Shown in pieces: positions 5,081-44,411 of a stretch of 64,000 nucleotides of DNA. Origin of the DNA: a bacterium (GTDB lineage Bacteria; Patescibacteriota; Doudnabacteria; UBA920; 2-01-FULL-46-14); NCBI GenBank assembly GCA_030700065.1, contig JAUYKH010000041.1:4659-68658 (forward strand), in the 5' to 3' direction. The notes under the pieces were generated by a model. It saw nothing but the letters and a program-made list of their open reading frames with translations, was not told where the DNA came from and searched no databases. Position 1 is the first letter of the stretch, and every line of letters begins with the position of its first letter. The translations under genes were made by a program, and so were the position numbers.

Positions 5081-6024
5081 ACAAAAATACCCCAATTTTA
5101 ATAATAGGTTTTGGTTCAATCGGGCGCAGGCACTACGCGAATTTGTTGAAACTAGGTTATAAGAATGTCTGGGTTTATGATATTAATCAGAGACGAATTA
5201 AGAATTACGAATTAAGAATTACGAAATTGAGTAAGTCGAACCTGCAAAATTTCAAAATAGTATTTGTCTGTTCGCCGAACCACCTGCATTTAAAACATGC
5301 CCTCGCGGCCGTAAAGGCCGGATGTGATCTGTTCATTGAAAAACCGCTGTCGCATAATTTGAAAGGGGTTGCGTGGTTAAGCAAACTGGCACGGAAAAAT
5401 AGGTTAATCAATATGGTTGCGTGTAATATGCGTTTTCATCCGGCTCTCGAGTTTGTCAAAAAATGTTTACAAACTCGAAAACTTGGGAAAATTTATAGCA
5501 TAGCTCACGAATGCGGGCATTATTTACCATTTTGGCGAAAGGCAGAGGATTATCGAAAAAATTACGCAGCCAAAAAATCAACCGGCGGGGGAATTATTCT
5601 GGATGACGTTCACGAATTCGATCTGCTTTTCTGGCTAAACAACTTTTCAGCAGTGAAAAAACGATTTTTGATTTTTGATCACATTTCAGATTTGCGGATT
5701 GAAACCGAGGACATGAGTTTGGCTGGTTACGAGTTTGATAATAAAGTTTTTGGTTTGGTAAAGAGCGATTACCTGCAGAAGTATTACAGTCGAAGCGTAA
5801 AAATTGTCGGTGAAAAAGGTAACTTGATTTGGGATTACAAGGAAAATATCGTTTGGTTTGCTGACGAAAAAAGAAAAAACAAGTTATTGACAATCAAGAA
5901 TTACGATTCAAACGAGATGTATGTCCGCGAGCTAGAATATTTTTTGAACAGCGTACGTACTCGAAAAAAAACCGAAAACGATATAGCCCATGCCCGCACA
6001 GTCCTTAAAAATTGTTTGCCATGA
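5077..6024 (+). CDS. Gfo/Idh/MocA-family NAD(P)-dependent oxidoreductase
   Basis: N-terminal Rossmann ILIIGFGSIGRRHYANL and VFVCSPNHLHLKHALAAVKAGCDLFIEKPL pattern. Confidence 0.6.
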   Translation: MNKNTPILIIGFGSIGRRHYANLLKLGYKNVWVYDINQRRIKNYELRITKLSKSNLQNFKIVFVCSPNHLHLKHALAAVKAGCDLFIEKPLSHNLKGVAWLSKLARKNRLINMVACNMRFHPALEFVKKCLQTRKLGKIYSIAHECGHYLPFWRKAEDYRKNYAAKKSTGGGIILDDVHEFDLLFWLNNFSAVKKRFLIFDHISDLRIETEDMSLAGYEFDNKVFGLVKSDYLQKYYSRSVKIVGEKGNLIWDYKENIVWFADEKRKNKLLTIKNYDSNEMYVRELEYFLNSVRTRKKTENDIAHARTVLKNCLP

Positions 6025-6770
6025 CTAAAACACTTTGTATAATCCAAGCCAGAATGAGTTCCACGCGGCTGCCCGGTAAGGTTTTGAAAGAAGTTAGCGG
6101 GGCAAGTCTTATTGAACATGAAATTCGCAAGCTCAAAATGGCTCGTTTGATTGATAAAATTGTCCTGGCCACGACCACTGGTTCAGAAGACGACAGGCTG
6201 GTGGGTGCGTGCCGCCGGCTGGAAATTGATTGTTTTCGCGGCAGCAAAGATGACGTTTTGGGTAGGTACCTTAAATGTGCGAAGCAGTTTCCAGAGTATG
6301 ACGTAATCATTCGGGCCACTGGCGACTGCCCCCTTATCGATCCTGGTGTCGCAGATAATACAATATTTTTTTTCAAAAGCAATAATTACGATTATGTGAG
6401 CAATTCTAACCCACCGACTTTCCCAGATGGAATGGATATCGAAGTTTTTAGCAGGCAATCTCTTGAAAAAGCCGACCGCGAGGCACAGAAGACGGCCGAG
6501 CGAGAACACGTGACTCTCTATATCAGAGAAAGCGGAAAATTTAAAATCGGCAACTTTATCGGGGATAAAGATTATTCCAAGTACCGCTTGACGGTCGACA
6601 ATCCCGAGGATTTTGAAGTTATAAAGGCTGTGATTGAGAATTTCAACCCCGATTCGACCTTTCTGGATTATATTGATTTTCTTGAAGGGCATCCGGACAT
6701 CATGGCCAAGAACATGTCCATTAAAAGAAATGAGGGCTTAATCAAATCGTTAAATAAAGAGAAAATATGA
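6012..6770 (+). CDS. Cytidylyltransferase (SpsF / acylneuraminate cytidylyltransferase-like, CTP_transf_3)
   Basis: MTKTLCIIQARMSSTRLPGKVLKEVSGASLI..ATGDCPLIDP is the classic SpsF/PseF-type N-terminus. Confidence 0.65.
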   Translation: MFAMTKTLCIIQARMSSTRLPGKVLKEVSGASLIEHEIRKLKMARLIDKIVLATTTGSEDDRLVGACRRLEIDCFRGSKDDVLGRYLKCAKQFPEYDVIIRATGDCPLIDPGVADNTIFFFKSNNYDYVSNSNPPTFPDGMDIEVFSRQSLEKADREAQKTAEREHVTLYIRESGKFKIGNFIGDKDYSKYRLTVDNPEDFEVIKAVIENFNPDSTFLDYIDFLEGHPDIMAKNMSIKRNEGLIKSLNKEKI

Positions 6771-11124: not shown

Positions 11125-12177
11125 ATGGAAATGACAATCGGCAATAAAAAGATCGGGCATGATTTTCCTACGTTTGTCGTCGCGGAAATGTCGGGTAATC
11201 ACAACCAAGATATTAACAGGGCGTATCAAATTATTGACGCGGCCGCCGAAGCCGGAGCAGATGCCATTAAGCTCCAAACTTATACTGCTGACACAATCAC
11301 GATTGATTCTGATGAGGCGCCTTTTCGTCTCGGTGCCGATGTTAATGAAGCGTGGGCCGGACAGACATTATATAAATTGTATCAACAGGCTTTCACTCCT
11401 TGGGGGTGGCAACCTAAACTTAAAGAATATGCAGAAAAGAAAGGCCTGATTTGTTTCTCAACGCCCTTTGACGAAACATCGGTAGACTTTCTGGAAAACC
11501 TGAATGTCCCGGCATACAAAGTTGCATCTTTTGAGTTGGTTGATATTCCACTTTTGAAAAAGATCGGGCAGACAAAAAAACCGGTGATTATATCCCGGGG
11601 CATGGCTTCACTCGAAGAAATTGAACTAGCGGTGGAAACTCTCAAAAAGGCCGGAACGTCTGGGGTAGCGGTTTTGCACTGTGTGAGTGCTTATCCAGCG
11701 CGGCCAGATCAGATGAACCTCGCAACAATTCCTGATTTGGCAAAAAGATTTGATGTGATTCCTGGCCTCTCCGACCACACTTTAGGTATTACCGTCCCAA
11801 TTGCGGCAGTGACTTTAGGGGCGAAAATAATAGAAAAGCACTTTACCTTGGCTCGCGCTGATGGGGGGCCGGATGCCTCATTTTCTTTGGAACCTAAAGA
11901 ATTGAAGGAGTTGGTGGATGCCATCAGGGACATAGAAAAGGCCGTGGGTAAACCGACTTATGGGGCTTCGGGCGGTGAATCAGAATACTTAAAGTATAGG
12001 CGTTCATTGTTTGCGGTAGCAGATATCAAGAAAGGCGAAGCGTTTACCAAAGATAACATTCGTTCGATTCGGCCCGGTTTCGGTCTGCCGCCAAAATATT
12101 TTGAACAAATAATTGGGAAAAAAGCGAAACAAGACATCAAACGAGGAACACCTTTGGGTTGGGAGATGATCAAGTGA
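11125..12177 (+). CDS. N-acetylneuraminate/pseudaminate/legionaminate-type synthase (NeuB family) #1
   Basis: FVVAEMSGNHNQDINRAYQIIDAAAEAGADAIKLQTY..LHCVSAYPA..GLSDHTLG plus a C-terminal SAF/antifreeze-like tail. This is the hallmark NeuB TIM-barrel pattern. Confidence 0.8.
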   Translation: MEMTIGNKKIGHDFPTFVVAEMSGNHNQDINRAYQIIDAAAEAGADAIKLQTYTADTITIDSDEAPFRLGADVNEAWAGQTLYKLYQQAFTPWGWQPKLKEYAEKKGLICFSTPFDETSVDFLENLNVPAYKVASFELVDIPLLKKIGQTKKPVIISRGMASLEEIELAVETLKKAGTSGVAVLHCVSAYPARPDQMNLATIPDLAKRFDVIPGLSDHTLGITVPIAAVTLGAKIIEKHFTLARADGGPDASFSLEPKELKELVDAIRDIEKAVGKPTYGASGGESEYLKYRRSLFAVADIKKGEAFTKDNIRSIRPGFGLPPKYFEQIIGKKAKQDIKRGTPLGWEMIK

Positions 12178-12251: not shown

Positions 12252-13364
12252 ATGAAGTGGACACGAACAATCTCATTCAAACCTGAAAAAATCCAGCAAG
12301 AAGCCTGGACTTTCGAAGATGGGAACGAAACAAAAAAATATTCAGTCGAAGTGACTTTGGGTAAGCCGATTGATATTTTGTCCCTTAAAATGAGCAGGGT
12401 TGAGGATTTTAAATCCAAGGTTGAGACTGTGAAGGCTTCGCGGACTGAAGTTTACGCAAATCCTGTCAACCTGGAAGAGGTCAAGAATTGTCCGATATGC
12501 CAAAACCCGTCTGACCGATTGAGGCAGATCCTCAATATATATGGCGCCGTTTACACTTCCTGCGAGAAATGTTTCCATTGCTACGCCCTTTCTAAGCCCA
12601 CGGACGCGTACCTCGCGAGTTTTTACAAAACGAACGATTCTTACCAAAGCACATATGCCGACAAAAATACTCAAAAGCAGCGTCTGGAATGGATCTCCAA
12701 ACCCAAGGCAGAATACGTACTAAATGAATATAAAAAGCGATACGGCAGATTGCCCAAAAAAGTTCTTGATATTGGCGCGGGAAGCGGGCATTTCGTTTAC
12801 CAATTGAGACAAATGGGAATAGATTGCGATGGAGTTGAGATCAGCGAGTCAGGAATCGCTTTCGCGAAAGAAGTTTTTGGCGTCGAACTTTTGAACATTG
12901 ATTTTTTGAAGGAAGCGGATAAATTTGAATGCGACATTGTAACATTTTGGGGACTGATCGAACACGTGAGCAAACCTGTCGAGATGCTCGCGGCTGCGAG
13001 GCGCGCGCTTGGCCCAGACGGCATGGTTGTCGCCGAAGTACCGCGGTTTGAGAGTCTTAGCACAGCAGTACATCGGGCCTTTCCCGATTCAGTAATCAGA
13101 CATTTGGATCCCATGGATCATAATCAGTGTTTTTCAGATTCGTCACTGGCAACTGCTTTTGTTTTGAGCGGTTTGGATATTGTTTCTGCGTGGTATTTTG
13201 GCATGGATGCCTATGAGTTCATATCGCAATTGGCGTACCGTGCGCAAGAAGACAAAGTCATCAAGGTCGCTGGCGAAAAAATTCCTGTGTTTCAGGAGCA
13301 AATCGACCTTGGCCGTCTTTCAGATTTCGTTCTATTTATTGGTATCCCTTCAAAGAAACAATAG
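12252..13364 (+). CDS. Class I SAM-dependent methyltransferase with N-terminal Cys4 zinc-ribbon
   Basis: CPICQN..CEKCFHCY Zn-ribbon, then VLDIGAGSGHFVYQL motif I. Architecture resembles sugar C-/O-methyltransferases (TylC3-like). Confidence 0.55.
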   Translation: MKWTRTISFKPEKIQQEAWTFEDGNETKKYSVEVTLGKPIDILSLKMSRVEDFKSKVETVKASRTEVYANPVNLEEVKNCPICQNPSDRLRQILNIYGAVYTSCEKCFHCYALSKPTDAYLASFYKTNDSYQSTYADKNTQKQRLEWISKPKAEYVLNEYKKRYGRLPKKVLDIGAGSGHFVYQLRQMGIDCDGVEISESGIAFAKEVFGVELLNIDFLKEADKFECDIVTFWGLIEHVSKPVEMLAAARRALGPDGMVVAEVPRFESLSTAVHRAFPDSVIRHLDPMDHNQCFSDSSLATAFVLSGLDIVSAWYFGMDAYEFISQLAYRAQEDKVIKVAGEKIPVFQEQIDLGRLSDFVLFIGIPSKKQ

Positions 13365-13370
13365 TTATTT

Positions 13371-15800
13371 ATGCCTGCAAACAATAAAAAAAGAAAAGCG
13401 ATTATTTTAGGAGCCGGCCCTTTAGGTTTGGTGACCGCGTGGAAACTCCTGGAAAACGGCTGGAAGGTTGAGATTTACGAGAAGCAGAATATGGTTGGCG
13501 GCTTGTGCCGCACGTGGAGGTGGCGGGATTTCCTGGTTGATACCGGCCCGCATATATACCACACTCCAGACCCCCAGCTGGCGAAATTTTGGGAAGCGGA
13601 GTTTGGTGATCTTATGCTGAAGGGAGAATTTTGGTGTAAGAACGTGCGCGGTGATCAATTCGAAGAATATTGGGATTACCCTCTGTCCTGGGAAAGCATA
13701 TCGCGGTATCCGCTTAAGCTTAAGGAAAAAGTCTTGAAAGAATTGCAGGAACGCTCCGAGGAGTCCAAAGTCAAAGCAAGAAATTATACGCAATATATGG
13801 AGGCTCAAGTTGGTCCGACACTGCGTGAAATGTTTTTCAAATCGTATCCCGAAAAAATTTGGGGTATCACAACCGATGAAATGACGCCTGGCTGGGCGCC
13901 AAAACGCATTGAATTTCGGCAGAAAGTAACCCCTTTTTATCACAATCAATGGAACGCGGTCGGCAAATTCGGAACGGGATGCGTCTATGAACGAATTAAG
14001 GAAAAAATTGATTCGTTGGGCGGGAAGGTTTATTTAGGCGCGCAGGTGACCAACATAGTTCCAGAGGGCGGTGGGCGGCTGAAACGGATAACCTTCGCCG
14101 ATCGAGAGGCTGTCGAGATTGGACCGGATGACGTTGTCATCTCCAGTCTGCCAATTACCCTAACCGCCAGATTTTTTGGACATGAAAGCTCGCTGCGCTT
14201 CCGCGGCATTACTTCCGTGTATCTGGCCTACAAAAAAGAGTCGATCCTCCCAAAAGGGATTCATTGGCTCTATTATGGCTCCCCGAATGTTGATTTTAAC
14301 CGCATTACCGAACCCAAAAAACTCTCTCCTTACGTCGCGCCTACGGGCGAGACTTATCTCACTGTGGAAATTACCATGAGCCCCGGGGATGAAATCGACC
14401 GCATGGATCCGCAGGAGTTGTCAGGGCGCGTGGCCGCTCAAGTGGAAAAAGCCGGTCTGGCCCGAAAAGAGGAAGTGATTGACTCGAGCGTGAATAAGGA
14501 AAGGTTTGTCTATCCCTTGCAGTACGCGGGATATCAGGAAGAACTGGCAAAAACACGCGCTGTTGTTTCCAAATATCAGCAGCTGTTTTCCATCGGCACT
14601 GGCGGGGATTTTAGTTACGCTGATAGTCAAATTCTTTTTCATAAGGCATTTGATACGGTCTCCATTCTATGCGGAAAAGATTCGTCTTATACCCAGGTGA
14701 TTCGCCAGACTCCGCAAATTAGTTTCAACCAGATAGTTCGAATGGGTGAACGTAAAGTTGGTGATGGCGAGCAGCCCTATATCATCGCCGAAGCGGGACT
14801 CAATCACAACGGGAGCCTCGATCTGGCCAAACAGCTGGTTGACGCGGCCGCGAAAACCGGCGCGGATGCTGTAAAGTTTCAAACGTTTCAGGCGAAAAAT
14901 CGAATTTCCAGGAAAGTGAAGGCCGTCAAATATGCTGAAACAGTCATTGGCACGGAAGAGACGCTTTACGAGATGTTTGACCGATTGGCCATGTCGTTTG
15001 AGGACCAGAAACAACTGTTTGCTTACGCCAAGGATAGGGGAATCGAGGTTTTTTCGACCCCCTTTGACGAGGAAAGTGTGGATTTTCTCGAGTCGGTCGG
15101 CGTGAGGTTTTATAAAATTGCCTCAATGGATCTCGTCAATTTACCCTTGATTGAGCGCGCGGCAAAAACTGGCAAACCGATTATTCTTTCGACCGGGATG
15201 TCGACGCTTGGGCAAATAGAAGAGGCGGTCGAGGTCGTACAGAAAGCCGGTAACCCGAATTTGGTGCTTTTGCATTGCAATTCATCGTACCCGGCCGCGC
15301 CCGAGGAGATGAACCTCAATGTTATCAAGACCTTAAAGCAAGCGTTCGGGGTACCGGTGGGGCTTTCTGACCATACTTTGGGTTTAACAGTTTCCCAGAC
15401 TGCTTTAGCGATTGGAGCCAACATGATCGAGAGACATTTTACCCTGGATCGGACGTTTGAGGGACCAGACCACATTCTTTCGTCCGAGCCTCAAGAGTTT
15501 GCCGAGCTTGTGAGATTGTCCAAAAACACCCCCCCGATCAAATTGACAAAACAGATTTCCCAAATCCTTGGCGATGGAGTGAAGCGGATTCAGCCGAGCG
15601 AATACTCAACACTCAACACCCAGCGCAAGAGTCTGTATGCCGCGGCGGATATAGAGACTGGCGAGCCAATTACCAAAGAGAAGATTATTATTAAAGGCCC
15701 GGGCGGGGGACTGCTGCCAAAGTATTTGGATATGGTCGTGGGGCGCGTCGCCCGCAAACGCATCGAGAGCGATTATCCGATTACTTGGGAAGTTATTTAA
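13371..15800 (+). CDS. Fusion protein: N-terminal FAD/NAD(P)-binding amine-oxidase/UDP-galactopyranose-mutase-like oxidoreductase + C-terminal NeuB-family synthase #2
   Basis: 809-aa continuous ORF. N-term ILGAGPLGLVTAWKLLENGWKVEIYEKQNMVGGLCRT is a dinucleotide-binding fold. From about aa 440, YIIAEAGLNHNGSLDLAKQLVDAAAKTGADAVKFQTF..LHCNSSYPA..GLSDHTLG is a full NeuB domain. Confidence 0.7.
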   Translation: MPANNKKRKAIILGAGPLGLVTAWKLLENGWKVEIYEKQNMVGGLCRTWRWRDFLVDTGPHIYHTPDPQLAKFWEAEFGDLMLKGEFWCKNVRGDQFEEYWDYPLSWESISRYPLKLKEKVLKELQERSEESKVKARNYTQYMEAQVGPTLREMFFKSYPEKIWGITTDEMTPGWAPKRIEFRQKVTPFYHNQWNAVGKFGTGCVYERIKEKIDSLGGKVYLGAQVTNIVPEGGGRLKRITFADREAVEIGPDDVVISSLPITLTARFFGHESSLRFRGITSVYLAYKKESILPKGIHWLYYGSPNVDFNRITEPKKLSPYVAPTGETYLTVEITMSPGDEIDRMDPQELSGRVAAQVEKAGLARKEEVIDSSVNKERFVYPLQYAGYQEELAKTRAVVSKYQQLFSIGTGGDFSYADSQILFHKAFDTVSILCGKDSSYTQVIRQTPQISFNQIVRMGERKVGDGEQPYIIAEAGLNHNGSLDLAKQLVDAAAKTGADAVKFQTFQAKNRISRKVKAVKYAETVIGTEETLYEMFDRLAMSFEDQKQLFAYAKDRGIEVFSTPFDEESVDFLESVGVRFYKIASMDLVNLPLIERAAKTGKPIILSTGMSTLGQIEEAVEVVQKAGNPNLVLLHCNSSYPAAPEEMNLNVIKTLKQAFGVPVGLSDHTLGLTVSQTALAIGANMIERHFTLDRTFEGPDHILSSEPQEFAELVRLSKNTPPIKLTKQISQILGDGVKRIQPSEYSTLNTQRKSLYAAADIETGEPITKEKIIIKGPGGGLLPKYLDMVVGRVARKRIESDYPITWEVI

Positions 15801-15809
15801 GGAGAAAAC

Positions 15810-16577
15810 ATGATGAATTTAAAGGATAAAAAAGTTTTGATCACAGGGGCGGCGGGTCAGCTCGGCAGACAATACTGTCAGGCTTTTGCGCAAGCCGGAG
15901 CCGTTGTGATCGCGTCCGATATTGATCTTGAAGCCTGTCAGGAAATCCCGGGTCAGCTCGAGGGGGGTATCGCAAAGCATTATGCCTTGGCATGTGATGT
16001 CGCAGATCCGTCGTCAGTCGAAGCGGCTTTTGCTGAAATTACGAGCCGGTTTGGCTCGCTCGACGTGCTCATCAATAACGCGGGCATCGGCGTATTCGAG
16101 CCTTGGCTTGAGCGGAAGTTTGAGGATTTTATGAAGGTGTTTCGAGTAAACGCGGGCGGGACCTTTCTGTGCACGAAAGCCGCCAGTGTGCTGATGCGCG
16201 ATTCGAAAACCAAGGGGTCTATCATCAATATCGGCTCGATTTACGGTTTGGGAAGCAGTGATCCGAGGATATACGGCGACACGCCCCGGATGAACTCTGA
16301 ATGCTACACCGGGTCAAAAGCAGCCGTTATCGCCATGACCAAATATTTTGCCATCCACTTGGCGCCATATGGTATTCGAGTGAACTGTATTAGCCCGGGT
16401 GGGGTTTTCAACCGGCAAGGCAGTTATTTTGTGGAGCAGTACAGCAATCGCACGCCGATGGGGCGCATGGCGAACGAGGATGAACTGCCAGCTACTGCCG
16501 TATTTTTGGCGTCAGATGGAGCTTCATACATCACCGGACAAAATATAGCGGTTGACGGGGGTTGGACTGCGTGGTGA
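15810..16577 (+). CDS. Short-chain dehydrogenase/reductase (SDR)
   Basis: VLITGAAGQLGRQY, NNAG, YTGSKAAV. Confidence 0.7.
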   Translation: MMNLKDKKVLITGAAGQLGRQYCQAFAQAGAVVIASDIDLEACQEIPGQLEGGIAKHYALACDVADPSSVEAAFAEITSRFGSLDVLINNAGIGVFEPWLERKFEDFMKVFRVNAGGTFLCTKAASVLMRDSKTKGSIINIGSIYGLGSSDPRIYGDTPRMNSECYTGSKAAVIAMTKYFAIHLAPYGIRVNCISPGGVFNRQGSYFVEQYSNRTPMGRMANEDELPATAVFLASDGASYITGQNIAVDGGWTAW

Positions 16578-16595: not shown

Positions 16596-17744
16596 ATGGA
16601 ACAGGAAATACAATATTTAGAAGCGTGGCTCAAGGAGGCGGAGCTACTGGCCAGAAAAATTAGAAATCAGGCTGATCGGAAGAATGGCATGGCGGTTTTT
16701 ACTATTTCCGCCACGGTCAAGGCCCAGGATAAAAGAAAACCCTTTTTGACGCCTTTGCGGGAAATTACGCATGGGTCTGTCGGAGGGTCGCTCGTATTTT
16801 CTCAAACACAGGCCGCTCTGCTTTGTAAACAAATCGACGGCATCGTAGATTGGATTTTGGTTGATGCCGAAAAAAAGATTCCGATCAGTTTTGGCTACAA
16901 TAAAGAAATTTTGTCGCACTTTAAGCTTCAGCTTTTGGGGCGCAAGGTCGGATATTCCCGCGAGCATATCGAGATGGGGAATCTAAGCGCGGTATGCGCC
17001 CTATATGTCAAGCAAAGCGATTTGCACGAATTTAAGGCCAATGACATTACTGTTGATTCCGTATGGCACGCGCTCTCCCACGCGAAGGGGATACTAAGCG
17101 GAAAAAAGATCGCGATTATCGGCGCCGGCAACATTGGGTTCAAGCTGGCACAACGACTCGTCGAGAGTGGGTGCAGTGTTGATCTAGTGCGCCGTGATGC
17201 GACCCGCGGAACATTGATGGCGGATCTTATCAATGCGGTCAAGCCGAAATCTACGCTGGCCGTGGCGCATTACAATCCTGATCCGCTGCAGGCGTCCGTG
17301 TTTTCCGACGCGATAATCGGCTGCACCAACGGGGTGCCGGTGATTACATGGGAGATGATGCGGGCCATGCGTCCTGATGGGGTTGTCATTGATGTCGGGA
17401 AAGGAACGATCCATGGTGATGCCTTGAGAAAGGGATTAGAGGATGGTGTAAAAATTATCCGCACGGATGTAGCACCGGGAATAGACGGGTTGATTGCCAC
17501 CATTCGAAGCACAAAAAATTTAATGGCTAATGTGATGGGCCGGAAGCTTTTGGGTGATGTGAATGTGGTGTCCGGCGGTTTTATGGGATTGGACGGTGAT
17601 GTCGTCGTAGACAATTATGAGCATCCAACTTATGTCATCGGTATTTCGGACGGTAACGGCGATATCAAGAAAGATTATCCCGAGGCAGACGCCGTGCGAA
17701 TCGACGCGGTAAAAAAATTTATTGGCGTGGAAAAGCAACTATGA
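16596..17744 (+). CDS. NAD(P)-binding Rossmann-fold dehydrogenase (AlaDH/PNT- or shikimate-DH-like C-terminal domain), function unknown
   Basis: GKKIAIIGAGNIGFKLAQRLVESGCSVDLVRRD and IIGCTNGVPVITWEMMRAMRPDGVVIDVGKGTI resemble the AlaDH/PNT C-domain pattern. Confidence 0.35.
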   Translation: MEQEIQYLEAWLKEAELLARKIRNQADRKNGMAVFTISATVKAQDKRKPFLTPLREITHGSVGGSLVFSQTQAALLCKQIDGIVDWILVDAEKKIPISFGYNKEILSHFKLQLLGRKVGYSREHIEMGNLSAVCALYVKQSDLHEFKANDITVDSVWHALSHAKGILSGKKIAIIGAGNIGFKLAQRLVESGCSVDLVRRDATRGTLMADLINAVKPKSTLAVAHYNPDPLQASVFSDAIIGCTNGVPVITWEMMRAMRPDGVVIDVGKGTIHGDALRKGLEDGVKIIRTDVAPGIDGLIATIRSTKNLMANVMGRKLLGDVNVVSGGFMGLDGDVVVDNYEHPTYVIGISDGNGDIKKDYPEADAVRIDAVKKFIGVEKQL

Positions 17745-18427
17745 AAATCTATACTGTTATCCCGGCTCGTTCCGGCAGCAAAAGCATACCAAAAAAGAAT
17801 ATTCGACCGCTGAACGGTAAGCCCCTTTTGCAGTATTCGGTTGAATATTCCCTGCAGTGCCCGCTCGTGTCGCGCACGGTTGTCTCCACGGACTCTGAAG
17901 AGTTTGCCCAAGTTGCCAGAAGCTGCGGGGCGGATGTTCCCTTTATTCGGCCGGCGGAATTCGCGCAGGACGATACGCAGGATTATCCGGTAATGCGGCA
18001 TGCTCTCGACACCCTCGAGTCTATATACAAAGAACAAATAGACGTGCTGGTTTTGCTCCGTCCGACCTCGCCATTTCGTCCGCCAAAGTTAATCGAACGG
18101 GCGGTGGAATTGTTGCAGAAGCATCCGGAAGCTACATCGGTCAGGGCAGTTACTAGGTCTACAGAGCACCCTTACAGGCAATGGGTTATAGAAGAGCCTT
18201 TTATGATTGGATTCGCGAGAGACGTGCACGAGCCTTACAATATTCCCCGTCAAAAATTGCCGAAGGTTCTTTTCCAAACCGGCGATTTGGAAATGGTGAC
18301 TAGGTCAACACTGCTTAGCGGTTCGGTTTCGGGAGATCATGTTTTGCCGCTTTACATCGCTCCGGAAGAGATGCTGGATCTCGACACTTTTTCAGACTGG
18401 GAGGAAGCAGAGAGGAGACAAACCTAA
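17741..18427 (+). CDS. Acylneuraminate cytidylyltransferase (CMP-nonulosonic acid synthetase, NeuA-like) #1
   Basis: MKIYTVIPARSGSKSIPKKNIRPLNGKPLL..VLLRPTSPFR is the classic CMP-NeuAc synthetase N-terminus. Confidence 0.75.
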   Translation: MKIYTVIPARSGSKSIPKKNIRPLNGKPLLQYSVEYSLQCPLVSRTVVSTDSEEFAQVARSCGADVPFIRPAEFAQDDTQDYPVMRHALDTLESIYKEQIDVLVLLRPTSPFRPPKLIERAVELLQKHPEATSVRAVTRSTEHPYRQWVIEEPFMIGFARDVHEPYNIPRQKLPKVLFQTGDLEMVTRSTLLSGSVSGDHVLPLYIAPEEMLDLDTFSDWEEAERRQT

Positions 18428-18428
18428 A

Positions 18429-19328
18429 ATGCGCACCGCGGCGGATCTTTTTCTCGGAACAGTTAAATTAGGAGTACCGGAATACGGCTTCTCTTCGACT
18501 GCTCCGGTAGTCAGCTTTGACGCCCAGCAATTTTTGTGCGAGGCAGTCAAATTAGGAATCAGCCGTTTTGATACGTCCCCTCGTTATGGCAATAGCGAGG
18601 AGGTAATCGGCCAATATATAGGGCAAGCTTCTTCTAAACCATTCGTTGCTTCAAAAATTGACAATCTTGCCCCGAACAATTCAGACACACCAGGGTTGAT
18701 GGAAAAGAGTGTGAATGATTCGTTGGCCAAACTCCACCTTTCTACTCTCGATATTTGTTATTTGCATCAAAACGAGATGGAAATTATCAGCGACCCGTAC
18801 ATCCATCAAGGACTTTCGTTGTTAAAGGAGAAGGGGCTCGTACGACAAGCGGGGGCATCGGTTTACAGCAAAGAAGAATGCTCGTACGCCGTAGATTGCG
18901 GAATTTTTGACGTAATCCAGGCCCCTGTTAGCGTTTTTGATCTTGGGTTTTACAATGACTTCGTTCTTAACAAAAACCCCCCTGTGACCTTGATTGCCCG
19001 TTCTTTGCTTCTGCAAGGCATTCTGGTTAATCGAAGACAAATCAAGGGACAGATCAAACAATCCGACGCTGTGCTTCAATATCTCGATAATTTGGATCAG
19101 CTCGCAAAAGAAGCTGACATGTCAACCCTTGATATGGCACTTGCCTTTGTCTATGGGCTCTCCGGAATCGATTATTACATTATTGGAACCACATCGCTCG
19201 AAAATCTGAAACATAACATTGAATGCTTGAAGCTTGAATTACCGCGGCATATTATAAGTGAAATTAAAGTATTGGCGGGTACTCCGAAACAATGGACTAA
19301 TCCCCGCAATTGGAGTTTAAATGGATAA
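18429..19328 (+). CDS. Aldo/keto reductase family oxidoreductase
   Basis: ..FDTSPRYGNSEEVIG.. and the AKR barrel pattern. ATG at 18429 lies 2 nt after the upstream stop, and the longer in-frame 18339 start would overlap neuA. Confidence 0.55.
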   Translation: MRTAADLFLGTVKLGVPEYGFSSTAPVVSFDAQQFLCEAVKLGISRFDTSPRYGNSEEVIGQYIGQASSKPFVASKIDNLAPNNSDTPGLMEKSVNDSLAKLHLSTLDICYLHQNEMEIISDPYIHQGLSLLKEKGLVRQAGASVYSKEECSYAVDCGIFDVIQAPVSVFDLGFYNDFVLNKNPPVTLIARSLLLQGILVNRRQIKGQIKQSDAVLQYLDNLDQLAKEADMSTLDMALAFVYGLSGIDYYIIGTTSLENLKHNIECLKLELPRHIISEIKVLAGTPKQWTNPRNWSLNG

Positions 19329-20829
19329 ATTTATAGGTAAAAGAATATTGATTTTTCAACAGCGAAGCTGGGGCATCGGCATTGGTCATTTTTTGGCGCA
19401 AAAACTCAAGAGAGAAGGTTGTCGTCTTGCCGCCATAACCTTTAAAAAGTCTACCCAAGATTTTGTGGCGGGTCAACGGGAGGTAGAATACGAGCTTGTA
19501 ATCAATGATGACGAGGTATTGGGGAATTCTCGAGCCTATTTGGCAGGTCAAGATTATTCCCTCGGAGAGATTTGTCGGGATTTGGGGGTGGAAACAATTT
19601 GGCCGCTCGTTCAGAGCATGAGAAATCTTGTGAGATCTTATGGAGAAAAATACTACTACAGTTTTAAGCAGAATGTTCCTGACGAAGAAATTGAGCTTTA
19701 CATCAAAGCCGTTTATAAGTATATACGAGTGATTTTTGAACAATTCAATCCCGACCTTATCCTAAGTCCAAATTTTGTCGCGCTACCTTTTATTATGATG
19801 AATCTTTACGCTGCTCGGCGGAACGTGAAAATGATTGCCGTTACCGACGCAAAAATTAAGGGTATGTTTATGTTCAGCTACAGTTACCGCGATGATGACG
19901 GCCCGCTATTTACCAGACTGGCGGAGTTAAACATCGAAAAAGAAGAAAGCCCAAATAAAGAAAGAGCCAGACAATACATCGCCGAGTTCAGGCAGAAATT
20001 CAAAAATCCCGATCACTTGAATGTCCAGGATAAACCCATCTCACCTTACAAAACTTTACGCCACGAGCTTTCGCCCTATTACCACAGTTTACTTTGGCTA
20101 ATAAAAAAACCGCGGCACGATCTTAAGAACCTTGGCGTAATTATGGACTACCGTCCTCCCCGGATCATTTTGCGCGATCATTATATGCACAAGCGGTATA
20201 AAAGGTTTGCCCAGAATTTCTCCTATTTTCCCTTTGACCGTCTTCGAAAGTTTGTGTATTTTCCTCTGCAGTTTCAGCCCGAGGCCTCGATAGACGTCAT
20301 TGCGCCGTATTTCAGCAACCAAATTGAAACAGCCCGGCTGGTTGCAATGGCCTTGCCGGATGATTATACCCTGGTCGCAAAGGATCACCCTTCGATGGTT
20401 GGTTTGCACTCCCCGGGTTATTTGGAAAAAATTGTACGAACGCCTAATGTGAAATTGATTGATCACCGTCTTGGCAGCGAACAAATTTTGAAAAAAGCCG
20501 ATTTGGTGGTTAGTCCGAACAGCACCACATTGGCAGAGGCCGCGTTTTATAACAAGCCGGCGATCCAGCTCGGGGATTTGGGAATTACTCTTTGTCTTCC
20601 AAATGTTTTTAGGCATACGGATTTTACCACCTTGTCGTCAAAGATCCGAGATGTACTGAAAATTGATTTGCACACATTAGAGTATGAGCGTCTGCTTCAA
20701 AATTTTGTGGCCGCGGTCTACGACACAGGGTTTGATTTTAACTACACCAAGGCATGGGCGAAGGGCTTGAAAGGCGGAGGGGAAGAGCTTTGGCAAATTT
20801 ATAAGAAGGAGATTGAAAGGAACTTATGA
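19321..20829 (+). CDS. Capsule-polysaccharide-biosynthesis (KpsS/KpsC-like, Capsule_synth) family putative glycosyltransferase
   Basis: FVYFPLQFQPEASIDV..VAKDHPSMVG..ADLVVSPNSTTLAEAAFYNKPAIQLGD resembles retaining KpsS/KpsC-type (beta-Kdo-like) transferases. Pattern only. Confidence 0.4.
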   Translation: MDKFIGKRILIFQQRSWGIGIGHFLAQKLKREGCRLAAITFKKSTQDFVAGQREVEYELVINDDEVLGNSRAYLAGQDYSLGEICRDLGVETIWPLVQSMRNLVRSYGEKYYYSFKQNVPDEEIELYIKAVYKYIRVIFEQFNPDLILSPNFVALPFIMMNLYAARRNVKMIAVTDAKIKGMFMFSYSYRDDDGPLFTRLAELNIEKEESPNKERARQYIAEFRQKFKNPDHLNVQDKPISPYKTLRHELSPYYHSLLWLIKKPRHDLKNLGVIMDYRPPRIILRDHYMHKRYKRFAQNFSYFPFDRLRKFVYFPLQFQPEASIDVIAPYFSNQIETARLVAMALPDDYTLVAKDHPSMVGLHSPGYLEKIVRTPNVKLIDHRLGSEQILKKADLVVSPNSTTLAEAAFYNKPAIQLGDLGITLCLPNVFRHTDFTTLSSKIRDVLKIDLHTLEYERLLQNFVAAVYDTGFDFNYTKAWAKGLKGGGEELWQIYKKEIERNL

Positions 20830-22583
20830 ATACGAAAAATTCAAAAACCTATATTGGCATCAATGCTGAACCCGTGGATCCGTCAGTGGCCATAGTGCGA
20901 GACGGGAAAGTGTTGGCGTTCGCGGAAGAAGAGCGTTTTATCCGCTATAAACATGCCCTGAAGGTATACCCGATTCGGGCTTTGCGGTATTGTCTGAAGC
21001 AGACTGGCATATCCCTTCAAGATGTATCAGGCGTGGGAATTGCCTGGGACGTTGAAGCTTATTCGGACGGAAGATTGCGGGAATTTTTTGACAACATGGC
21101 TAAAACTTTGCCTGTGGACAAGGGAACTAAGGCCTGGCAGAATTACATGATCTCAACTCATAATTTCGAAGGCATCAAGAACGTCCATGTAAGGAATTGG
21201 CGGAAAATGGCCGGCGACATCAATATGCCAAAAATTCTATCATTTCCCCATCATTATACCCATGCCTTTCATGCTTATATGCAATCAGGCTTTGACAAGG
21301 CTGTTTGTCTGACAATAGACGGCTCGGGCGATAAGCACTGCACTGTGGTGTGGCGCTGTGAAGGCGACAAGATAGAACCTTTGCGCGAAATCACGATGCC
21401 CTATTCCTTGGGTTGGTTATATGGCGCGATAACCGAATATCTGGGTTTCAAATCCAAAGATGGGGAATATAAAGTGATGGGATTCGGGGCATATGGCGAA
21501 GCTGATCCGGAATTATTACGGAAGTTTGAACAGATTATCTCGGTCGCAGGGGACGGAGTGGAATACCGCCTGAATTCCCGATACATTCATTATGGCCAGC
21601 ATTCTTACTCGGATAGATTCACCGACGAGCTAGTAACTCTTTTTGGGAAACCTCCTCGCTTGCCGGACGAAGAAATCAATCATTGGCACGAAAATTTAGC
21701 TTTTGTGCTGCAAAAAAAACTGGAGGAGGCGGCAGTTCGGCTTGTGCATTGGGGGATTTCCAAAACGGGCATTCAAAACGTCTGCGTTGGCGGCGGCGTT
21801 GGGCACAATATTAAAATGAACAATGCTATTTTTGCCCTGCCGGAAGTTGAGTCGATATTCGTCCATCCCTTGTGCAGTGATTTGGGCGGCGCGGCCGGCG
21901 CAGCTTTGGCGGCTTGTTTTAATGAAACAGGCATCCGACCCGAAAAATTGGAAACCTTAGCTCTGGGACCAGAATTCTCTGACCAGGAAATTGAGGAAAT
22001 GCTAAAAATCGTCCGCGTGCCGTACGAAAAATTTGATGATATTTGCGCACCTGTCTCAAAAGAACTGGCGCGCGGCCGAGTTGTGGGGTGGTTTCAGGGC
22101 CGTATGGAAGCCGGTCCCCGCGCTTTGGGACAGCGCAGCATCTTGGCTGATCCCCGCGATGTAAAAAGTCGCGACAGAGTGAATGGAGTGGTCAAATTTA
22201 GGGAATACTGGCGGCCATTTTGTCCCTCCCTCACCTTGGAGTCCATGGAACATTACTTTGATAAGTATACAGAGGCTCCTTTTATGAATCTGGCATTTGT
22301 TGCCAATGAAAGATTAAAAAAAGAAGCGCCCGCTGTCGTGCACATTGACGGCACAGCGCGAGTGCAGACTGTCAGGCCCGACCACAATCCGCTTTTCCAC
22401 CGGCTACTCAAGACTTTTGAGAAAGAGTCAGGGGTGCCCGTGCTCCTTAATACCTCGTTTAACGTAAAAGGCGAGCCGATCGTTTGTACCCCCCAAGATG
22501 CCTTGCGCACCTTCTGGTCCACCGGACTTGACGCGCTCGCGATTGGCAGTTATTTCATTAACAAACATAACCGAAATCAATAG
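20826..22583 (+). CDS. NodU/CmcH-family carbamoyltransferase
   Basis: YIGINAEPVDPSVAIVRDGKVLAFAEEERFIRYKHA.. N-terminus with ~585 aa length and a C-terminal YrdC-like region. Confidence 0.75.
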   Translation: MNTKNSKTYIGINAEPVDPSVAIVRDGKVLAFAEEERFIRYKHALKVYPIRALRYCLKQTGISLQDVSGVGIAWDVEAYSDGRLREFFDNMAKTLPVDKGTKAWQNYMISTHNFEGIKNVHVRNWRKMAGDINMPKILSFPHHYTHAFHAYMQSGFDKAVCLTIDGSGDKHCTVVWRCEGDKIEPLREITMPYSLGWLYGAITEYLGFKSKDGEYKVMGFGAYGEADPELLRKFEQIISVAGDGVEYRLNSRYIHYGQHSYSDRFTDELVTLFGKPPRLPDEEINHWHENLAFVLQKKLEEAAVRLVHWGISKTGIQNVCVGGGVGHNIKMNNAIFALPEVESIFVHPLCSDLGGAAGAALAACFNETGIRPEKLETLALGPEFSDQEIEEMLKIVRVPYEKFDDICAPVSKELARGRVVGWFQGRMEAGPRALGQRSILADPRDVKSRDRVNGVVKFREYWRPFCPSLTLESMEHYFDKYTEAPFMNLAFVANERLKKEAPAVVHIDGTARVQTVRPDHNPLFHRLLKTFEKESGVPVLLNTSFNVKGEPIVCTPQDALRTFWSTGLDALAIGSYFINKHNRNQ

Positions 22584-26130: not shown

Positions 26131-26948
26131 TAAAATTTTGGGACGAAACCAATTTGGCGATTGAGGCGGCCAGGGCGGCTGGCAAGAAAATTTTGCAGGT
26201 GTATCAAACTGATTTCAAGACAGAACGAAAGGCTGACTATGAACCGATAACTTTGGCGGACCGGACAAGTCAAAAGACAATTCTTGAAGTTTTGGGTTCC
26301 TCTCATCTGCCGGTCCTTTCCGAAGAGCAGGAGGACGATTTATTACGTTTGAAGCAGGAACGCGTGTGGATTGTGGATCCTCTGGATGGGACAGCTGATT
26401 TCGTGGCTCGGACTGATGAATTTTGCGTAATGATTGCATTGGTAGAGAGTCAGATTTCCATACTCGGAGTAATTTATGAGCCGACTAATGATACTTTGTT
26501 TGTGGCCCAAAAGGGGGAAGGGGCGTATATCTGCAAGAATGGTCATTGGGAAAGACTGCGGGTGAGCAATGTACAGGGTCTTGACCAAATTCGGGCGGTC
26601 ATGAGCAGAAATCATTTGTTGGAAGAAGAAAAGGACATTCTGGCAAAAATAGGAGTTAAAAACTTTGTCCAAATGGGCAGTGCGGGACTGAAGGCCGCGG
26701 GGATTGCGGAAGGACGGTTTGATTTGTATTTCACGATGACAAACAAAATAAAACAATGGGATACAGCCGCGGCAAATTGTCTAATAAACGAGGCGGGCGG
26801 AAAAATAACAGATCTCGCGGGCAAAGACCTTATCTATAATATGGAAGATGTTTATCACAGAGATGGTATTTTGATGAGCAATGGAAAGATTCACGGGGAA
26901 GTGCTCAAGATTTATAGGGGTTTCAAAAATAAGCAATCAAATAATTAA
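26127..26948 (+). CDS. Inositol-monophosphatase-family protein (CysQ-like 3'(2'),5'-bisphosphate nucleotidase, putative)
   Basis: WIVDPLDGTADF motif of the IMPase/CysQ family. CysQ role is inferred from adjacency to the PAPS synthase. Confidence 0.55.
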   Translation: MIKFWDETNLAIEAARAAGKKILQVYQTDFKTERKADYEPITLADRTSQKTILEVLGSSHLPVLSEEQEDDLLRLKQERVWIVDPLDGTADFVARTDEFCVMIALVESQISILGVIYEPTNDTLFVAQKGEGAYICKNGHWERLRVSNVQGLDQIRAVMSRNHLLEEEKDILAKIGVKNFVQMGSAGLKAAGIAEGRFDLYFTMTNKIKQWDTAAANCLINEAGGKITDLAGKDLIYNMEDVYHRDGILMSNGKIHGEVLKIYRGFKNKQSNN

Positions 26949-26965: not shown

Positions 26966-27940
26966 ATGTTGGAACAATTCACTGACAAATTAAGAGGGAA
27001 AAGGATATTAGTCACCGGGGGTGCCGGGTTTTTGGGTTCGCACTTATGCGGAAGACTTCTCGCACATGGAGCAAAAGTGATCTGTTTTGATGATTTGAGC
27101 ACGGGGACAAGGGAAAACATTAACGAATATCTCGGTAGGGACGAATTTGCCTTCGTTACTGGCGATGCAAATAAATTTGCCGATCTTTCGAACGTTTTTG
27201 ACGCAGAGAAGATTGACTATGTTTTTCACTACGCCGCACGGGTTGGCGTAAAACGCACTACAGAACAGCCCCTCGAGGTCCTGGAAGACGTGGAAGGTAT
27301 AAAAAATGTGTTGCATCTTTCCAATAAGCATAACGTCGAAAAGGTTATCTTTTCTTCTTCGTCGGAAGTGTACGGCGAGCCGGTCGAGTTTCCAGAACGG
27401 GAGAACGGTCACGTTAACCCCAAACTCCCATATGCTTCAGTTAAACACATTGGCGAGAAATTCATGGAGTCTTACCACAAAGTCCACGGCCTGCGGACCT
27501 GTTCACTTCGCTTCTTCAATATTTATGGGCCCAAGCAAGACTCCTCGGCTTACGGTTTTGTGGTAGGGATATTTATCAAACAGGCGCTTTCTGGTGGCCC
27601 CTTGACCGTGCTCGGCGACGGGACGCAGACGCGGGATTTTGTGTTCGTGGATGACAATATCAACAGTTCCATTCTCGCCTTGCTCACGAACGCAACCGAT
27701 GGGCATGTGGTCAATATCGGCACTGGCCGTCCCATGACCATCTTGGATATGGCCGAGCTTGTAATCAAAGTCACCGGCAAAGATGTAAAGATTGAATTTT
27801 TGCCTTTCCGCGAGGGTGAAATCAGACATCGCTTCCCCGACGTGAGCAAAATGCGCAGCCTCCTGGGTTACAGGCCGATGCACACGATCGAGGAAGGCGT
27901 TCGTAAAACCATGGAGTGGTATCAGGGGCGATTATCGTAA
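26966..27940 (+). CDS. NAD-dependent epimerase/dehydratase (extended SDR; UDP-sugar 4-epimerase/decarboxylase-like)
   Basis: ILVTGGAGFLGSHLCGRLL and catalytic YASVKHIGEK. Confidence 0.7.
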   Translation: MLEQFTDKLRGKRILVTGGAGFLGSHLCGRLLAHGAKVICFDDLSTGTRENINEYLGRDEFAFVTGDANKFADLSNVFDAEKIDYVFHYAARVGVKRTTEQPLEVLEDVEGIKNVLHLSNKHNVEKVIFSSSSEVYGEPVEFPERENGHVNPKLPYASVKHIGEKFMESYHKVHGLRTCSLRFFNIYGPKQDSSAYGFVVGIFIKQALSGGPLTVLGDGTQTRDFVFVDDNINSSILALLTNATDGHVVNIGTGRPMTILDMAELVIKVTGKDVKIEFLPFREGEIRHRFPDVSKMRSLLGYRPMHTIEEGVRKTMEWYQGRLS

Positions 27941-27951
27941 TTTTAGAAGCC

Positions 27952-31973: not shown

Positions 31974-32649
31974 AAAAATACTTGCGATCATCCCGGCCCG
32001 CGGCGGATCCAAAGGCTTGCCGGGCAAAAATATAAAATTGTTGGTGGGTAAACCGCTCATCGCTTATTCAATTGAAGCGGCAAAAAAATCAAAGCACGTT
32101 GATCGTGTAATCGTGACCAGCGACGACAAGAATATTTTGGAAACTTCTGCACCATTTGGGGCTGAACTTATCCAAAGACCCGCAGAGCTGGCGCTTGATG
32201 AAACCAAGATGCCTCCAGTAATCCAACATGTTATTGACACATTAAAAACAAAGGATAATTATCGACCGGATATTGTTTTGCTTTTGCAGCCAACGTGTCC
32301 ATTGCGCACGAGCAAGCATATAGATGAGGCCATCGAGCATTTTTCGGCCAATGATTTTGACAGCCTCCTAAGCGTTCTGGTTTTATACAAGCAGCAGTTT
32401 GTGGTCGAGAATGAAAAATACTTGCAGCCGCTTCTGAAGGAAAGGCCAAACCGGCAGGACAGAAAGCCGGTGATATTGGAAAATGGCGTGATTTATTTGA
32501 CCATGATAAATCTGATGGAGCAGGGGACAATAGTGGGTGGAAAGATAGGTTATTATCCGATGCATATCGCTGATTCGCCAAACATTGACGACCAGGAAGA
32601 TTTTTTGTTTGCCGAAAGATTGATAAAAGGATCGCGTGACCATGAATAA
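31957..32649 (+). CDS. neuA: Acylneuraminate cytidylyltransferase (NeuA-like) #2
   Basis: ILAIIPARGGSKGLPGKNIKLLVGKPLIAYSIEAA..LLQPTCPLR. Confidence 0.75.
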   Translation: MPVIDKKILAIIPARGGSKGLPGKNIKLLVGKPLIAYSIEAAKKSKHVDRVIVTSDDKNILETSAPFGAELIQRPAELALDETKMPPVIQHVIDTLKTKDNYRPDIVLLLQPTCPLRTSKHIDEAIEHFSANDFDSLLSVLVLYKQQFVVENEKYLQPLLKERPNRQDRKPVILENGVIYLTMINLMEQGTIVGGKIGYYPMHIADSPNIDDQEDFLFAERLIKGSRDHE

Positions 32650-33730
32650 AGAAATCAAAATTGGACGAGTGGTTATTGGAGAGCAATATCCGTTTGTAGT
32701 CATTCCCGAGGCGGGCGATAATCACCACGGCAGCCTCGCCTCCGCCAAAGAGATTGCCCATGCCGCGCTTGAGGCCGGATCCAAGATTATTAAATTTCAA
32801 CTGCACTTGCCGGACGAGGAGATGGATCGAGAGGGCATGCGTCAAACGTCCTCGGAGATGTTTAAGAAATGGGGCGATTTGTACGGCTTTATTCAGAAAA
32901 ATCAGTTGTCTGTCGAAGATCACTCGGAACTTATCCGTTACTGCGAAAAGATCGGCATCCAGTATTTTTGCACACCTTTCTCGGCGAAGGCGGCACAAAT
33001 ACTAACAGAAATTGGCGGTGATGCCGCGTTCAAAATTGGTTCTGGAGAAACCGAAGATCTGCCAATGATTGAGGAGGTCGCTGCTTTGGGTAAGCCGATG
33101 ATGGTTTCCACTGGAATGAGCACTTATGAGGAGATTGATTTAACAGTCGCTGCTATTAAGCAGAAAAATATCCCGTTTTCGTTGGCGCATTGCATATCGT
33201 CCTATCCACCAAAGTCCCTTTCTGAACTTCACCTGGGAGTCATCAGAGAGCTTGGAGCGCGCTACGATACAGTTGTCGGTTTTTCGGATCATACGCCGCC
33301 CGAAGGGCTGGTAATCGAGGGAGGAAAGCCAATTTCAGAAGAGGCAATTTTGTTCGGCGCGATGGGCGCAGGTGCCAGATATCTAGAGAAACATTTTACT
33401 GTCGATAGAAAAGGAAAAGACGCGGATAGCTGGTTTTCTCATGATCCGCAGACCCTCAAAGATCTTATAAATACTGCCGCCGAACTTGATAAGGCGATGG
33501 ATAATAAGCGGGAGGTGTTTGAAGAGGAAAAAGGCGTCTGGATTTGGGCCAAGCGGAGCCTGGTCGCGGCCGAAGATATTCCGGCCGGAGCGAAGATTAC
33601 CCGAGAAATGCTCAAAAGCAAACGTCCGGGAACAGGAATTAGGTCCAAAGATTATCACTCGATTTTGGGGAAAATTGTTAAACACAACATCGCCAAGGAT
33701 AAAATATTACTGTTAACTGATTTAGAATGA
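32636..33730 (+). CDS. neuB: NeuB-family sialic-acid-type synthase #3
   Basis: FVVIPEAGDNHHGSLASAKEIAHAALEAGSKIIKFQLH..AHCISSYPP..GFSDHTPP plus SAF tail. Confidence 0.8.
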   Translation: MTMNKEIKIGRVVIGEQYPFVVIPEAGDNHHGSLASAKEIAHAALEAGSKIIKFQLHLPDEEMDREGMRQTSSEMFKKWGDLYGFIQKNQLSVEDHSELIRYCEKIGIQYFCTPFSAKAAQILTEIGGDAAFKIGSGETEDLPMIEEVAALGKPMMVSTGMSTYEEIDLTVAAIKQKNIPFSLAHCISSYPPKSLSELHLGVIRELGARYDTVVGFSDHTPPEGLVIEGGKPISEEAILFGAMGAGARYLEKHFTVDRKGKDADSWFSHDPQTLKDLINTAAELDKAMDNKREVFEEEKGVWIWAKRSLVAAEDIPAGAKITREMLKSKRPGTGIRSKDYHSILGKIVKHNIAKDKILLLTDLE

Positions 33731-42472: not shown

Positions 42473-42560
42473 TATGCAGGGGATTATAGCAAAAATCCGG
42501 CATATTGCATAGATTTTGGAATTTGAAAAAAAGTCCAAAAAATGATATAATATTAATAAT

Positions 42561-42618: not shown

Positions 42619-42652
42619 TAGATTGGGATTATATAATAGAAACAAAACTAAA

Positions 42653-44407: not shown

Positions 44408-44411
44408 CTAC

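Follow-up and report, generated by a model that had tools for sequence, protein, structure and literature searches.

What does a flavoenzyme contribute when it is joined to a synthase of nonulosonic acids? The question is raised by a 64,000-nucleotide stretch of a Doudnabacteria genome (GenBank assembly GCA_030700065.1, contig JAUYKH010000041.1, positions 4,659 to 68,658; hereafter the window), in which a single open reading frame (ORF) at 13371..15800 on the + strand encodes an 809-aa protein that combines a domain resembling UDP-galactopyranose mutase (UGM) with a NeuB synthase domain and an SAF domain. Nonulosonic acids (NulOs), which include sialic, legionaminic and pseudaminic acids and their relatives, shape bacterial surfaces, recognition by phages and grazers, and interactions with hosts. 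Our tentative answer is that the protein may be a bifunctional enzyme of a NulO pathway, in which the flavin domain would free an aldose from a nucleoside diphosphate (NDP) sugar for use by NeuB. We regard this as a serious possibility that falls short of being probable.

An important first step is to establish that the fusion exists. The original prediction had described one 809-aa ORF joining a flavoenzyme domain to NeuB, and this description holds: the ORF begins with ATG, has no internal stop in the ORF listing and contains the quoted motif ILGAGPLGLVTAW...GGLCRT. Pfam matches in its N-terminal half are NAD_binding_8 (aa 12-75, 1.3e-15) and Amino_oxidase (aa 19-367, 2.3e-19), with a GLF/UGM match (aa 155-335, 5e-5) just below its gathering cut-off (23.5 against 26.3), and those in its C-terminal half are NeuB (aa 489-719, 3.5e-92) and SAF (aa 753-807, 9.6e-9). 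Between the halves lies a poorly conserved linker (aa 438-460, 14682..14750, +), for which the predicted local distance difference test (pLDDT) score is <50 at residues 438-447. A search for homologous fusions in public genomes, which the original prediction had proposed, finds them in abundance. More than 120 independent protein clusters, defined at 90% identity, show the same architecture, with identities of 34-81% across the family. When 5.8 billion proteins were searched with a word index, there were 745 matches; the best 120 of these 745, drawn from NCBI, ENA, JGI, Logan and TARA, are nearly all 755-819 aa long (mostly 780-819), share the Pfam architecture and are 61-81% identical to the window's protein, the closest (81%) being on an ENA contig. 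When one genome per species was scanned, 73 loci were found; in 60 of them, on separate genomes and contigs, the fusion ORF is full-length, with identities of 34-73%.

The hosts are widely spread. They include the marine Pelagibacterales (SAR11), SAR116, SAR86 and Prochlorococcus; the Saccharibacteria, Paceibacteria and Kaiserbacteria of the candidate phyla radiation (CPR); and Omnitrophota, Magnetococcales, Nitrospirota, Planctomycetota, Elusimicrobia, Zetaproteobacteria and one Nitrososphaerales archaeon (a thaumarchaeon). Arcobacter iocasae KX21116, Rheinheimera sp. YQF-1 and Pelagibacterales CODY6 are cultured or completely sequenced hosts, and the complete genomes CP136340, NZ_CP090177 and OY781917 carry the fusion uninterrupted. 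The order of domains is constant, with the UGM-like part always before NeuB and always joined to it, and the few split versions are confined to fragmentary contigs of low-quality metagenome-assembled genomes (MAGs). A frameshift or assembly join in the window could in principle have merged two separate genes. Since the full-length architecture recurs across more than 120 clusters and 60 further loci, with uninterrupted ORFs in some 60 independent genomes from different projects, complete ones included, this explanation is effectively excluded and its probability negligible. The fusion is real and ancient, not an artefact. Databases give it generic names, such as ‘N-acetylneuraminate synthase family protein’, ‘FAD-dependent oxidoreductase’ or, at JGI, ‘sialic acid synthase SpsE/protoporphyrinogen oxidase’. 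We found no description of the architecture in the full-text literature searched, where coverage is partial and earlier work possible, and none in a large phylogeny paper on NulO synthases.

What kind of flavoenzyme, then, is the N-terminal domain (aa 1-437, 13371..14681, +)? The original prediction had called it amine-oxidase/UGM-like and had left open whether it performs an oxidation or a mutase-type step. A profile built from 31 diverse N-domains can discriminate between these options: its top 22 matches among solved structures are all UGMs, at E ~1e-24 and over nearly the full length, whereas against amine oxidases, LSD1, PPOX and CrtI the match is limited to about residues 2-70. The Pfam Amino_oxidase model is a broad one, and its match overlaps with the UGM fold. 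The UGM-like half of the label therefore stands, while an amine-oxidase identity is ruled out by the match to only the first ~60 residues of the oxidases. Because the profile's top structural matches are all UGMs and the UGM catalytic signature is invariant, the mutase-type option is supported and the oxidation option is not. Structure prediction also bears out the dinucleotide-binding fold expected for this domain; the FAD Rossmann motif and the UGM-type three-domain fold are both present, and the fold matches over 394 residues. The GxGxxG motif is found in ILGAGPLG (13404..13427, +), of which G14 and G16 are invariant in the family.

The UGM signature can be followed residue by residue. In an alignment to 1wam, GPHIYHT (aa 59-65, 13545..13565, +) corresponds to the UGM histidine loop, G58-T64 of K. 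pneumoniae UGM (KpUGM), so that G58-P-H60-I-F-H63-T becomes G59-P-H61-I-Y-H64-T65; the motif is invariant in both of our alignments (40 sequences, and 31 diverse fusions). FFKSYPEKIWG...WAPKR (13833..13907, +) aligns in an 80-bit domain with F151/F152/Y155/W160 of KpUGM, here F155/F156/Y159/W164, and with the mobile-loop arginine R174, here R179, which lies in a predicted loop (aa 177-189) of low pLDDT; Y185 corresponds to Y190. The second diphosphate-binding arginine, R280 in the YTRITE of KpUGM, appears as R311 in FNRITE (14295..14312, +), in a high-confidence part of the 4dsg alignment. Lastly, VYP...YAD (14508..14624, +; alignment domain 3, 9 bits) supplies the equivalents of Y314 (Y381) and of Y349/D351 (Y416/D418). 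The histidine loop, F155, W164, R179, R311 and Y381 are invariant in the family, and Y159, Y416 and D418 nearly so. We take R174 and R280 of KpUGM to bind the nucleotide diphosphate, Y155, W160, Y185, Y314 and Y349 to be further active-site or uridine-pocket residues, and the histidine loop to lie near flavin N5.

The N-domain is thus a UGM-family flavoprotein with an intact NDP-sugar site and histidine loop, and not an amine oxidase. It is a divergent member: it scores below the curated UGM thresholds, not only that of GLF given above but also TIGR00031 (36.9 against 303.75), and its best NCBIfam match is NF005547 of the PRK07208 group, at 206 bits over the full length and under a cut-off of 380. 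Among 1.84 billion representatives scanned exhaustively with HMMER, relatives at ≥31% identity are mostly fusions of ~780-830 aa or fragments. Stand-alone proteins of ~430-480 aa, which make up a large family, appear from ~25-33% identity and bear the generic names ‘FAD-dependent oxidoreductase’ or ‘protoporphyrinogen oxidase’.

These results also weigh on the idea that the N-domain is a redox flavoenzyme. It might oxidise or reduce a sugar or a NulO, for example to produce the aldehyde for NeuB or to desaturate or oxidise the product, while an NAD(P)-binding protein encoded downstream shuttles electrons to or from the flavin. Amine oxidases and desaturases, however, match only over the first ~60 residues and UGMs over nearly the whole domain, and the invariant residues are those which in UGM bind the UDP-sugar and contact flavin N5. 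We consider a redox role unlikely, and the distribution of the downstream gene, discussed below, does not help it.

The C-terminal part consists of a NeuB TIM barrel (14835..15527, +) followed by an SAF (antifreeze-like) domain (15627..15791, +; Pfam). The barrel carries E474, K502/Q504, K582/S585, N637/Y640, S666/H668, H689 and D700, of which E474, K502, K582, N637, H668, H689 and D700 are invariant and align with E25, K53, K129, N184, H215, H236 and D247 of Neisseria meningitidis NeuB (NmNeuB), its metal-binding and PEP (phosphoenolpyruvate)/catalytic residues. The claim that the synthase domain is complete is thus borne out for metal, PEP and catalytic residues alike, and the C-terminal part is a NeuB plus SAF synthase with its full catalytic set. 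The fusion falls just under the relevant equivalog cut-offs (NeuB_NnaB, 387.9 against 399.65; PseI, 330.1 against 340.25), and the neighbouring stand-alone PseI-type NeuB gene (11125..12177) passes the PseI equivalog with a score of 483.

One substitution stands out, and was overlooked in the original prediction. In KGPGGG (15693..15710, +), Gly776 occupies the aligned position of NmNeuB Arg314. Gly or Pro is found here in each of the 11 fusions that extend over this position, and Arg in none, whereas Arg is kept in 8 of the 8 stand-alone NeuB/PseI proteins aligned. Arg314, contributed by the SAF domain, is said to have been found essential in NmNeuB by Joseph and colleagues in 2013, and the structure 4ipi is that of the R314A mutant. 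Because the arginine is lost in fusions and kept in stand-alone enzymes, the sequences indicate that the synthase domain has co-evolved with the fusion, and its sugar recognition is probably different. This bears on the possibility that the N-domain is non-catalytic, a sensor of NDP-sugars or nucleotides or a scaffold, with NeuB using free sugar made elsewhere. Such a role would suit a NeuB domain that is complete by itself and a model in which the orientation between domains is undefined. Against it, conservation is not confined to binding residues but takes in the catalytic histidine loop and the FAD site, which do not vary even at 34% identity; and a NeuB domain that has lost the Arg314 equivalent seems to have adapted to the fusion. 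We judge it distinctly improbable, more so than a redox role.

The statement that NeuB enzymes are normally stand-alone is roughly correct but needs one qualification, as a second, different NeuB fusion occurs in ~14 related loci. There, directly after the gene for the DH-like protein described in the next paragraph, a protein of ~585 aa combines a divergent NeuB-like part, 24-29% identical to the NeuB domain of the UGM-like fusion, with a CTP_transf_3 cytidylyltransferase (loci L001/L002, 13472-15223, L005, L009, L010, L011, L013, L016, L022, L023, L027, L028, L032 and L075).

Further insight can be gained from the genes that accompany the fusion, of which the most constant went unmentioned in the original prediction. 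It encodes a dehydrogenase-like (DH-like) NAD(P)-binding protein of 382 aa (16596..17744, +), present in 57 of 61 fusion loci and mostly directly downstream of the fusion. In the window the spacing is operon-like. A Methyltransf_23 methyltransferase (12252..13364, +) ends 6 nt before the fusion; a short-chain dehydrogenase/reductase (SDR; 15810..16577, +) follows the fusion after 9 nt and the DH-like partner after a further 18 nt; a CMP-type cytidylyltransferase, PseF-like though below cut-off (17741..18427, +), overlaps the partner by 4 nt and is itself overlapped by an aldo-keto reductase (AKR; 18339..19328, +). To obtain frequencies, every ORF lying up to 10 kb from the fusion was included in a clustering over the 61 loci. 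The SDR family is found in 36-37 of 60 loci and the AKR family in 17; the methyltransferase's own cluster (c76) recurs only in L074, and a separate Methyltransf_23 family neighbours the fusion in 13 loci. Other frequent families are NDP-sugar 4,6-dehydratases/epimerases (34 loci), ABC exporters (30), NTP-transferases (22), two clusters of cytidylyltransferases (20 each), DegT (19) and class-III (16) aminotransferases, B12-radical-SAM proteins (12) and GHMP kinases (11). The module of SDR, fusion, partner, cytidylyltransferase and AKR recurs in Aliarcobacter, SAR86, SAR116, a gammaproteobacterial MAG and an unrelated Logan contig. On one ENA contig of 4257 bp, a 1141-aa protein (P0256) even unites the UGM-like, NeuB/SAF and DH-like parts in a triple fusion, which as a single sequence must be weighted with caution.

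The partner has no NCBIfam match. Its model is of high confidence (pLDDT 93), and since fold and profile searches give matches to the Rossmann core only, no function can be assigned from them. Distant homologues were sampled in three cases, and in two of these (Maridesulfovibrio frigidus and SAR324) they lie in glycan loci with no fusion nearby. As the homologues occur without the fusion, an oxidoreductase that modifies the sugar or the NulO is a likelier identity for the partner than a dedicated flavin reductase. The idea of a dedicated reductase is weakened accordingly, and with it the electron shuttle that a redox N-domain would call for.

What might the flavin domain do for NeuB? A clue can be found in what the loci lack. 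In the known NulO routes, NeuC or LegG (Epimerase_2 family) or PseG frees the hexose from its nucleotide before the synthase acts, and to our knowledge all described bacterial routes use a GT-B-fold enzyme for this step. Only 1 of the 60 other loci has a strong Epimerase_2 (NeuC-like) gene at a distance of up to 10 kb from the fusion. This count comes from a batch comparison of 105 unclassified neighbouring ORFs with Pfam, which gave four Epimerase_2 matches, one of them strong. Two of the three weaker matches were traced and are sub-threshold and GT-B-transferase-like, one of these also matching sialyltransferase and glycerophosphotransferase families; the remaining match is untraced. The frequent neighbours within 10 kb include no family of the PseG type, nor does any hydrolase family recur in the fusion loci. 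In the window itself, the only NeuC-like gene adjoins a third NeuB, 18 kb from the fusion.

The chemistry of the two enzyme families suggests how the step could be replaced. In UGM, attack of the reduced FAD on the anomeric carbon through its N5 displaces UDP, and the ring of the covalent adduct then opens to give an acyclic iminium, in a cycle that is redox-neutral (PMC7662398). NeuB forms a C-C bond between C3 of PEP and the aldehyde C1 of an acyclic sugar (PMC12531865). The UGM-type intermediate is thus one hydrolysis away from the NeuB substrate, because the one is a ring-opened iminium at C1 and the other an acyclic aldehyde at C1. On this basis, we propose that the N-domain would bind an NDP-sugar, probably of the UDP-(6-deoxy)hexosamine type supplied by the dehydratase, aminotransferase and reductase genes nearby. 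N5 of the reduced FAD would then attack C1 and expel the nucleotide as in UGM, giving a ring-opened flavin-sugar iminium. In place of re-closure to a furanose, the adduct would be hydrolysed, possibly after epimerisation at C2 through an enamine, to release the acyclic aldose, and the adjacent NeuB domain would join this aldose to PEP to form a 3-deoxy-2-ulosonic acid. The flavin domain would in this way stand in for NeuC, LegG or PseG. The DH-like partner, the SDR and the AKR could modify the sugar or the NulO in redox steps, and the cytidylyltransferase could convert the product into a CMP-activated donor. The frequency of NDP-sugar genes around the fusion (the 4,6-dehydratases/epimerases, NTP-transferases, DegT proteins and GHMP kinases counted above) speaks for this proposal, as do the conserved UGM and NeuB residues, the tight gene spacing in the window, the recurrence of the five-gene module in unrelated taxa and the triple fusion. 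The substrate channelling and the undescribed precursor route put forward in the original prediction are consistent with the near-absence of NeuC/PseG-type genes and with the lack of a publication. We infer the substrate, the hydrolytic outcome, the channelling, the role of the partner and the product.

A more conservative reading of the same signature is that the N-domain is a genuine mutase, converting an NDP-pyranose to an NDP-furanose that another enzyme hydrolyses ahead of NeuB or that a glycosyltransferase uses in building the same glycan; the fusion would then reflect stoichiometry or co-regulation, with no new reaction. The complete UGM catalytic signature is conserved, glycosyltransferases are common in fusion loci, and UGM-family enzymes are known that use other NDP-sugars. 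But NeuB needs a free reducing sugar, and none of the recurrent neighbours is a hydrolase that would supply it. In addition, the union is always with NeuB, in many phyla and at 34-81% identity, which argues for consecutive steps, and the exhaustive search found the closer relatives of the N-domain mostly fused or as fragments. A mutase therefore seems about as improbable to us as a redox enzyme.

Care must be taken with the proposal of a flavin domain that releases the aldose, as several observations weigh against it. We know of no biochemical precedent for productive hydrolysis of a UGM-type flavin-sugar adduct. The one strong Epimerase_2 gene, in Arcobacter iocasae (L072), lies four genes downstream of the fusion, and a NeuC or PseG copy elsewhere in a genome would be compatible with absence near the fusion. 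Around R280, Y314 and Y349, alignment scores are weak against bacterial UGMs alone, although the alignment of R311 is strong against TcUGM. In the AlphaFold model of the fusion the orientation between domains is uncertain (predicted template modelling score, pTM, 0.55), and because the geometry is this uncertain no channel can be argued from it. Finally, the proposed mechanism does not account for the role of the DH-like partner.

The surroundings of the fusion can also be described in their own right. It lies within a single-strand glycan island of ~42 kb that contains three NeuB paralogues, the third of which (32636..33730) has its own NeuC-like epimerase (33727-34881) and cytidylyltransferase. 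There are three CTP_transf_3 cytidylyltransferases in all (6012-6770, 17741-18427 and 31957-32649), and this one island may support the synthesis of several distinct nonulosonic acids. It also encodes several DegT and class-III aminotransferases, methyltransferases, a carbamoyltransferase, a sulfotransferase and a fusion that would form 3′-phosphoadenosine 5′-phosphosulfate (PAPS). The latter is a 916-aa protein (23380-26130, +) with a pyruvate-kinase barrel (aa 7-324), PUA_2, ATP-sulfurylase and APS (adenosine 5′-phosphosulfate)-kinase domains. A CysQ-like phosphatase (26127-26948) comes next, and the sulfotransferase (34884-35807) lies farther on. These genes have the appearance of a module for making PAPS, unusual in its pyruvate-kinase domain, and suggest a sulfated glycan. 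Directly downstream of the five-gene module lie a Capsule_synth-like protein (502 aa, 19321-20829) and the carbamoyltransferase (585 aa, 20826-22583), which could possibly serve transfer and carbamoylation steps for a NulO. At its end, the island has an O-antigen-ligase-like protein with Wzy_C and TPR domains (38837-41092) and a Bac_transf initiating transferase (41096-42538, -), adjoining PilB/PilC type IV pilus genes (42623-45626); a pilin or lipopolysaccharide may be the target of glycosylation. Five ORFs of 238-449 aa (27916-29253, 29243-29959, 37510-38769, 46646-47995 and 56413-57531) have no Pfam match at E≤1e-4. A tRNA-Arg(TCG) (50548-50619) and a tRNA-His(GTG) (55445-55518) are present, and an Rfam scan of the window found no further family at gathering score. 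Locus L003 encodes a 772-aa class-III aminotransferase (18157-20475) whose sequence is broken by a LAGLIDADG_3 match, apparently an intein-type insertion into an enzyme of the glycan pathway.

A flavoenzyme-NeuB fusion that is conserved across dozens of phyla together with an orphan NAD(P)-binding partner points to an undescribed route and probably to an undescribed sugar. What is new is that a NulO synthase pathway has a flavin front end without precedent, accompanied by an orphan partner; the chemistry is what we infer. If the proposal is true, UGM-type non-redox flavin chemistry would have a second biological outcome, and an undescribed NulO would decorate the surfaces of SAR11, SAR86, SAR116, Prochlorococcus and CPR bacteria. 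In its full form, in which a covalent flavin ‘nucleotide-sugar opener’ replaces NeuC, LegG or PseG and, with its partner, yields an undescribed NulO on abundant marine and groundwater bacteria, the proposal is more doubtful than in the narrower form given at the outset. Because the family includes cultured hosts, such as Arcobacter iocasae KX21116 and Rheinheimera sp. YQF-1, the hypothesis is directly testable.

How does the fusion compare with known systems? Its nearest stand-alone relatives are the PRK07208-type FAD oxidoreductases of ~430-480 aa, which provide the best NCBIfam match and form the next shell of homologues at ~25-33% identity; they are not joined to a synthase and are likewise uncharacterised. 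With UGM (Glf; PF03275, TIGR00031) it shares the FAD motif, GPHI(F/Y)HT, the two arginines, the active-site tyrosines and the uridine-pocket aromatics. Unlike UGM, its flavin domain is only ~20% identical, falls under the curated thresholds, is always joined to NeuB and does not keep R343 of KpUGM (here T410), and its outcome is probably not a pyranose/furanose equilibrium. From NeuB, LegI, PseI and SpsE (PF03102 plus PF08666) it differs in its 440-aa N-terminal flavin domain, in scoring below both equivalog cut-offs and in having Gly or Pro in place of Arg314. NeuC, LegG and PseG are cofactor-free enzymes of the GT-B fold, whereas the fusion is a flavoprotein with no sequence or fold relationship to them; it would nonetheless act at the same step, the conversion of an NDP-sugar to a free aldose before condensation with PEP.

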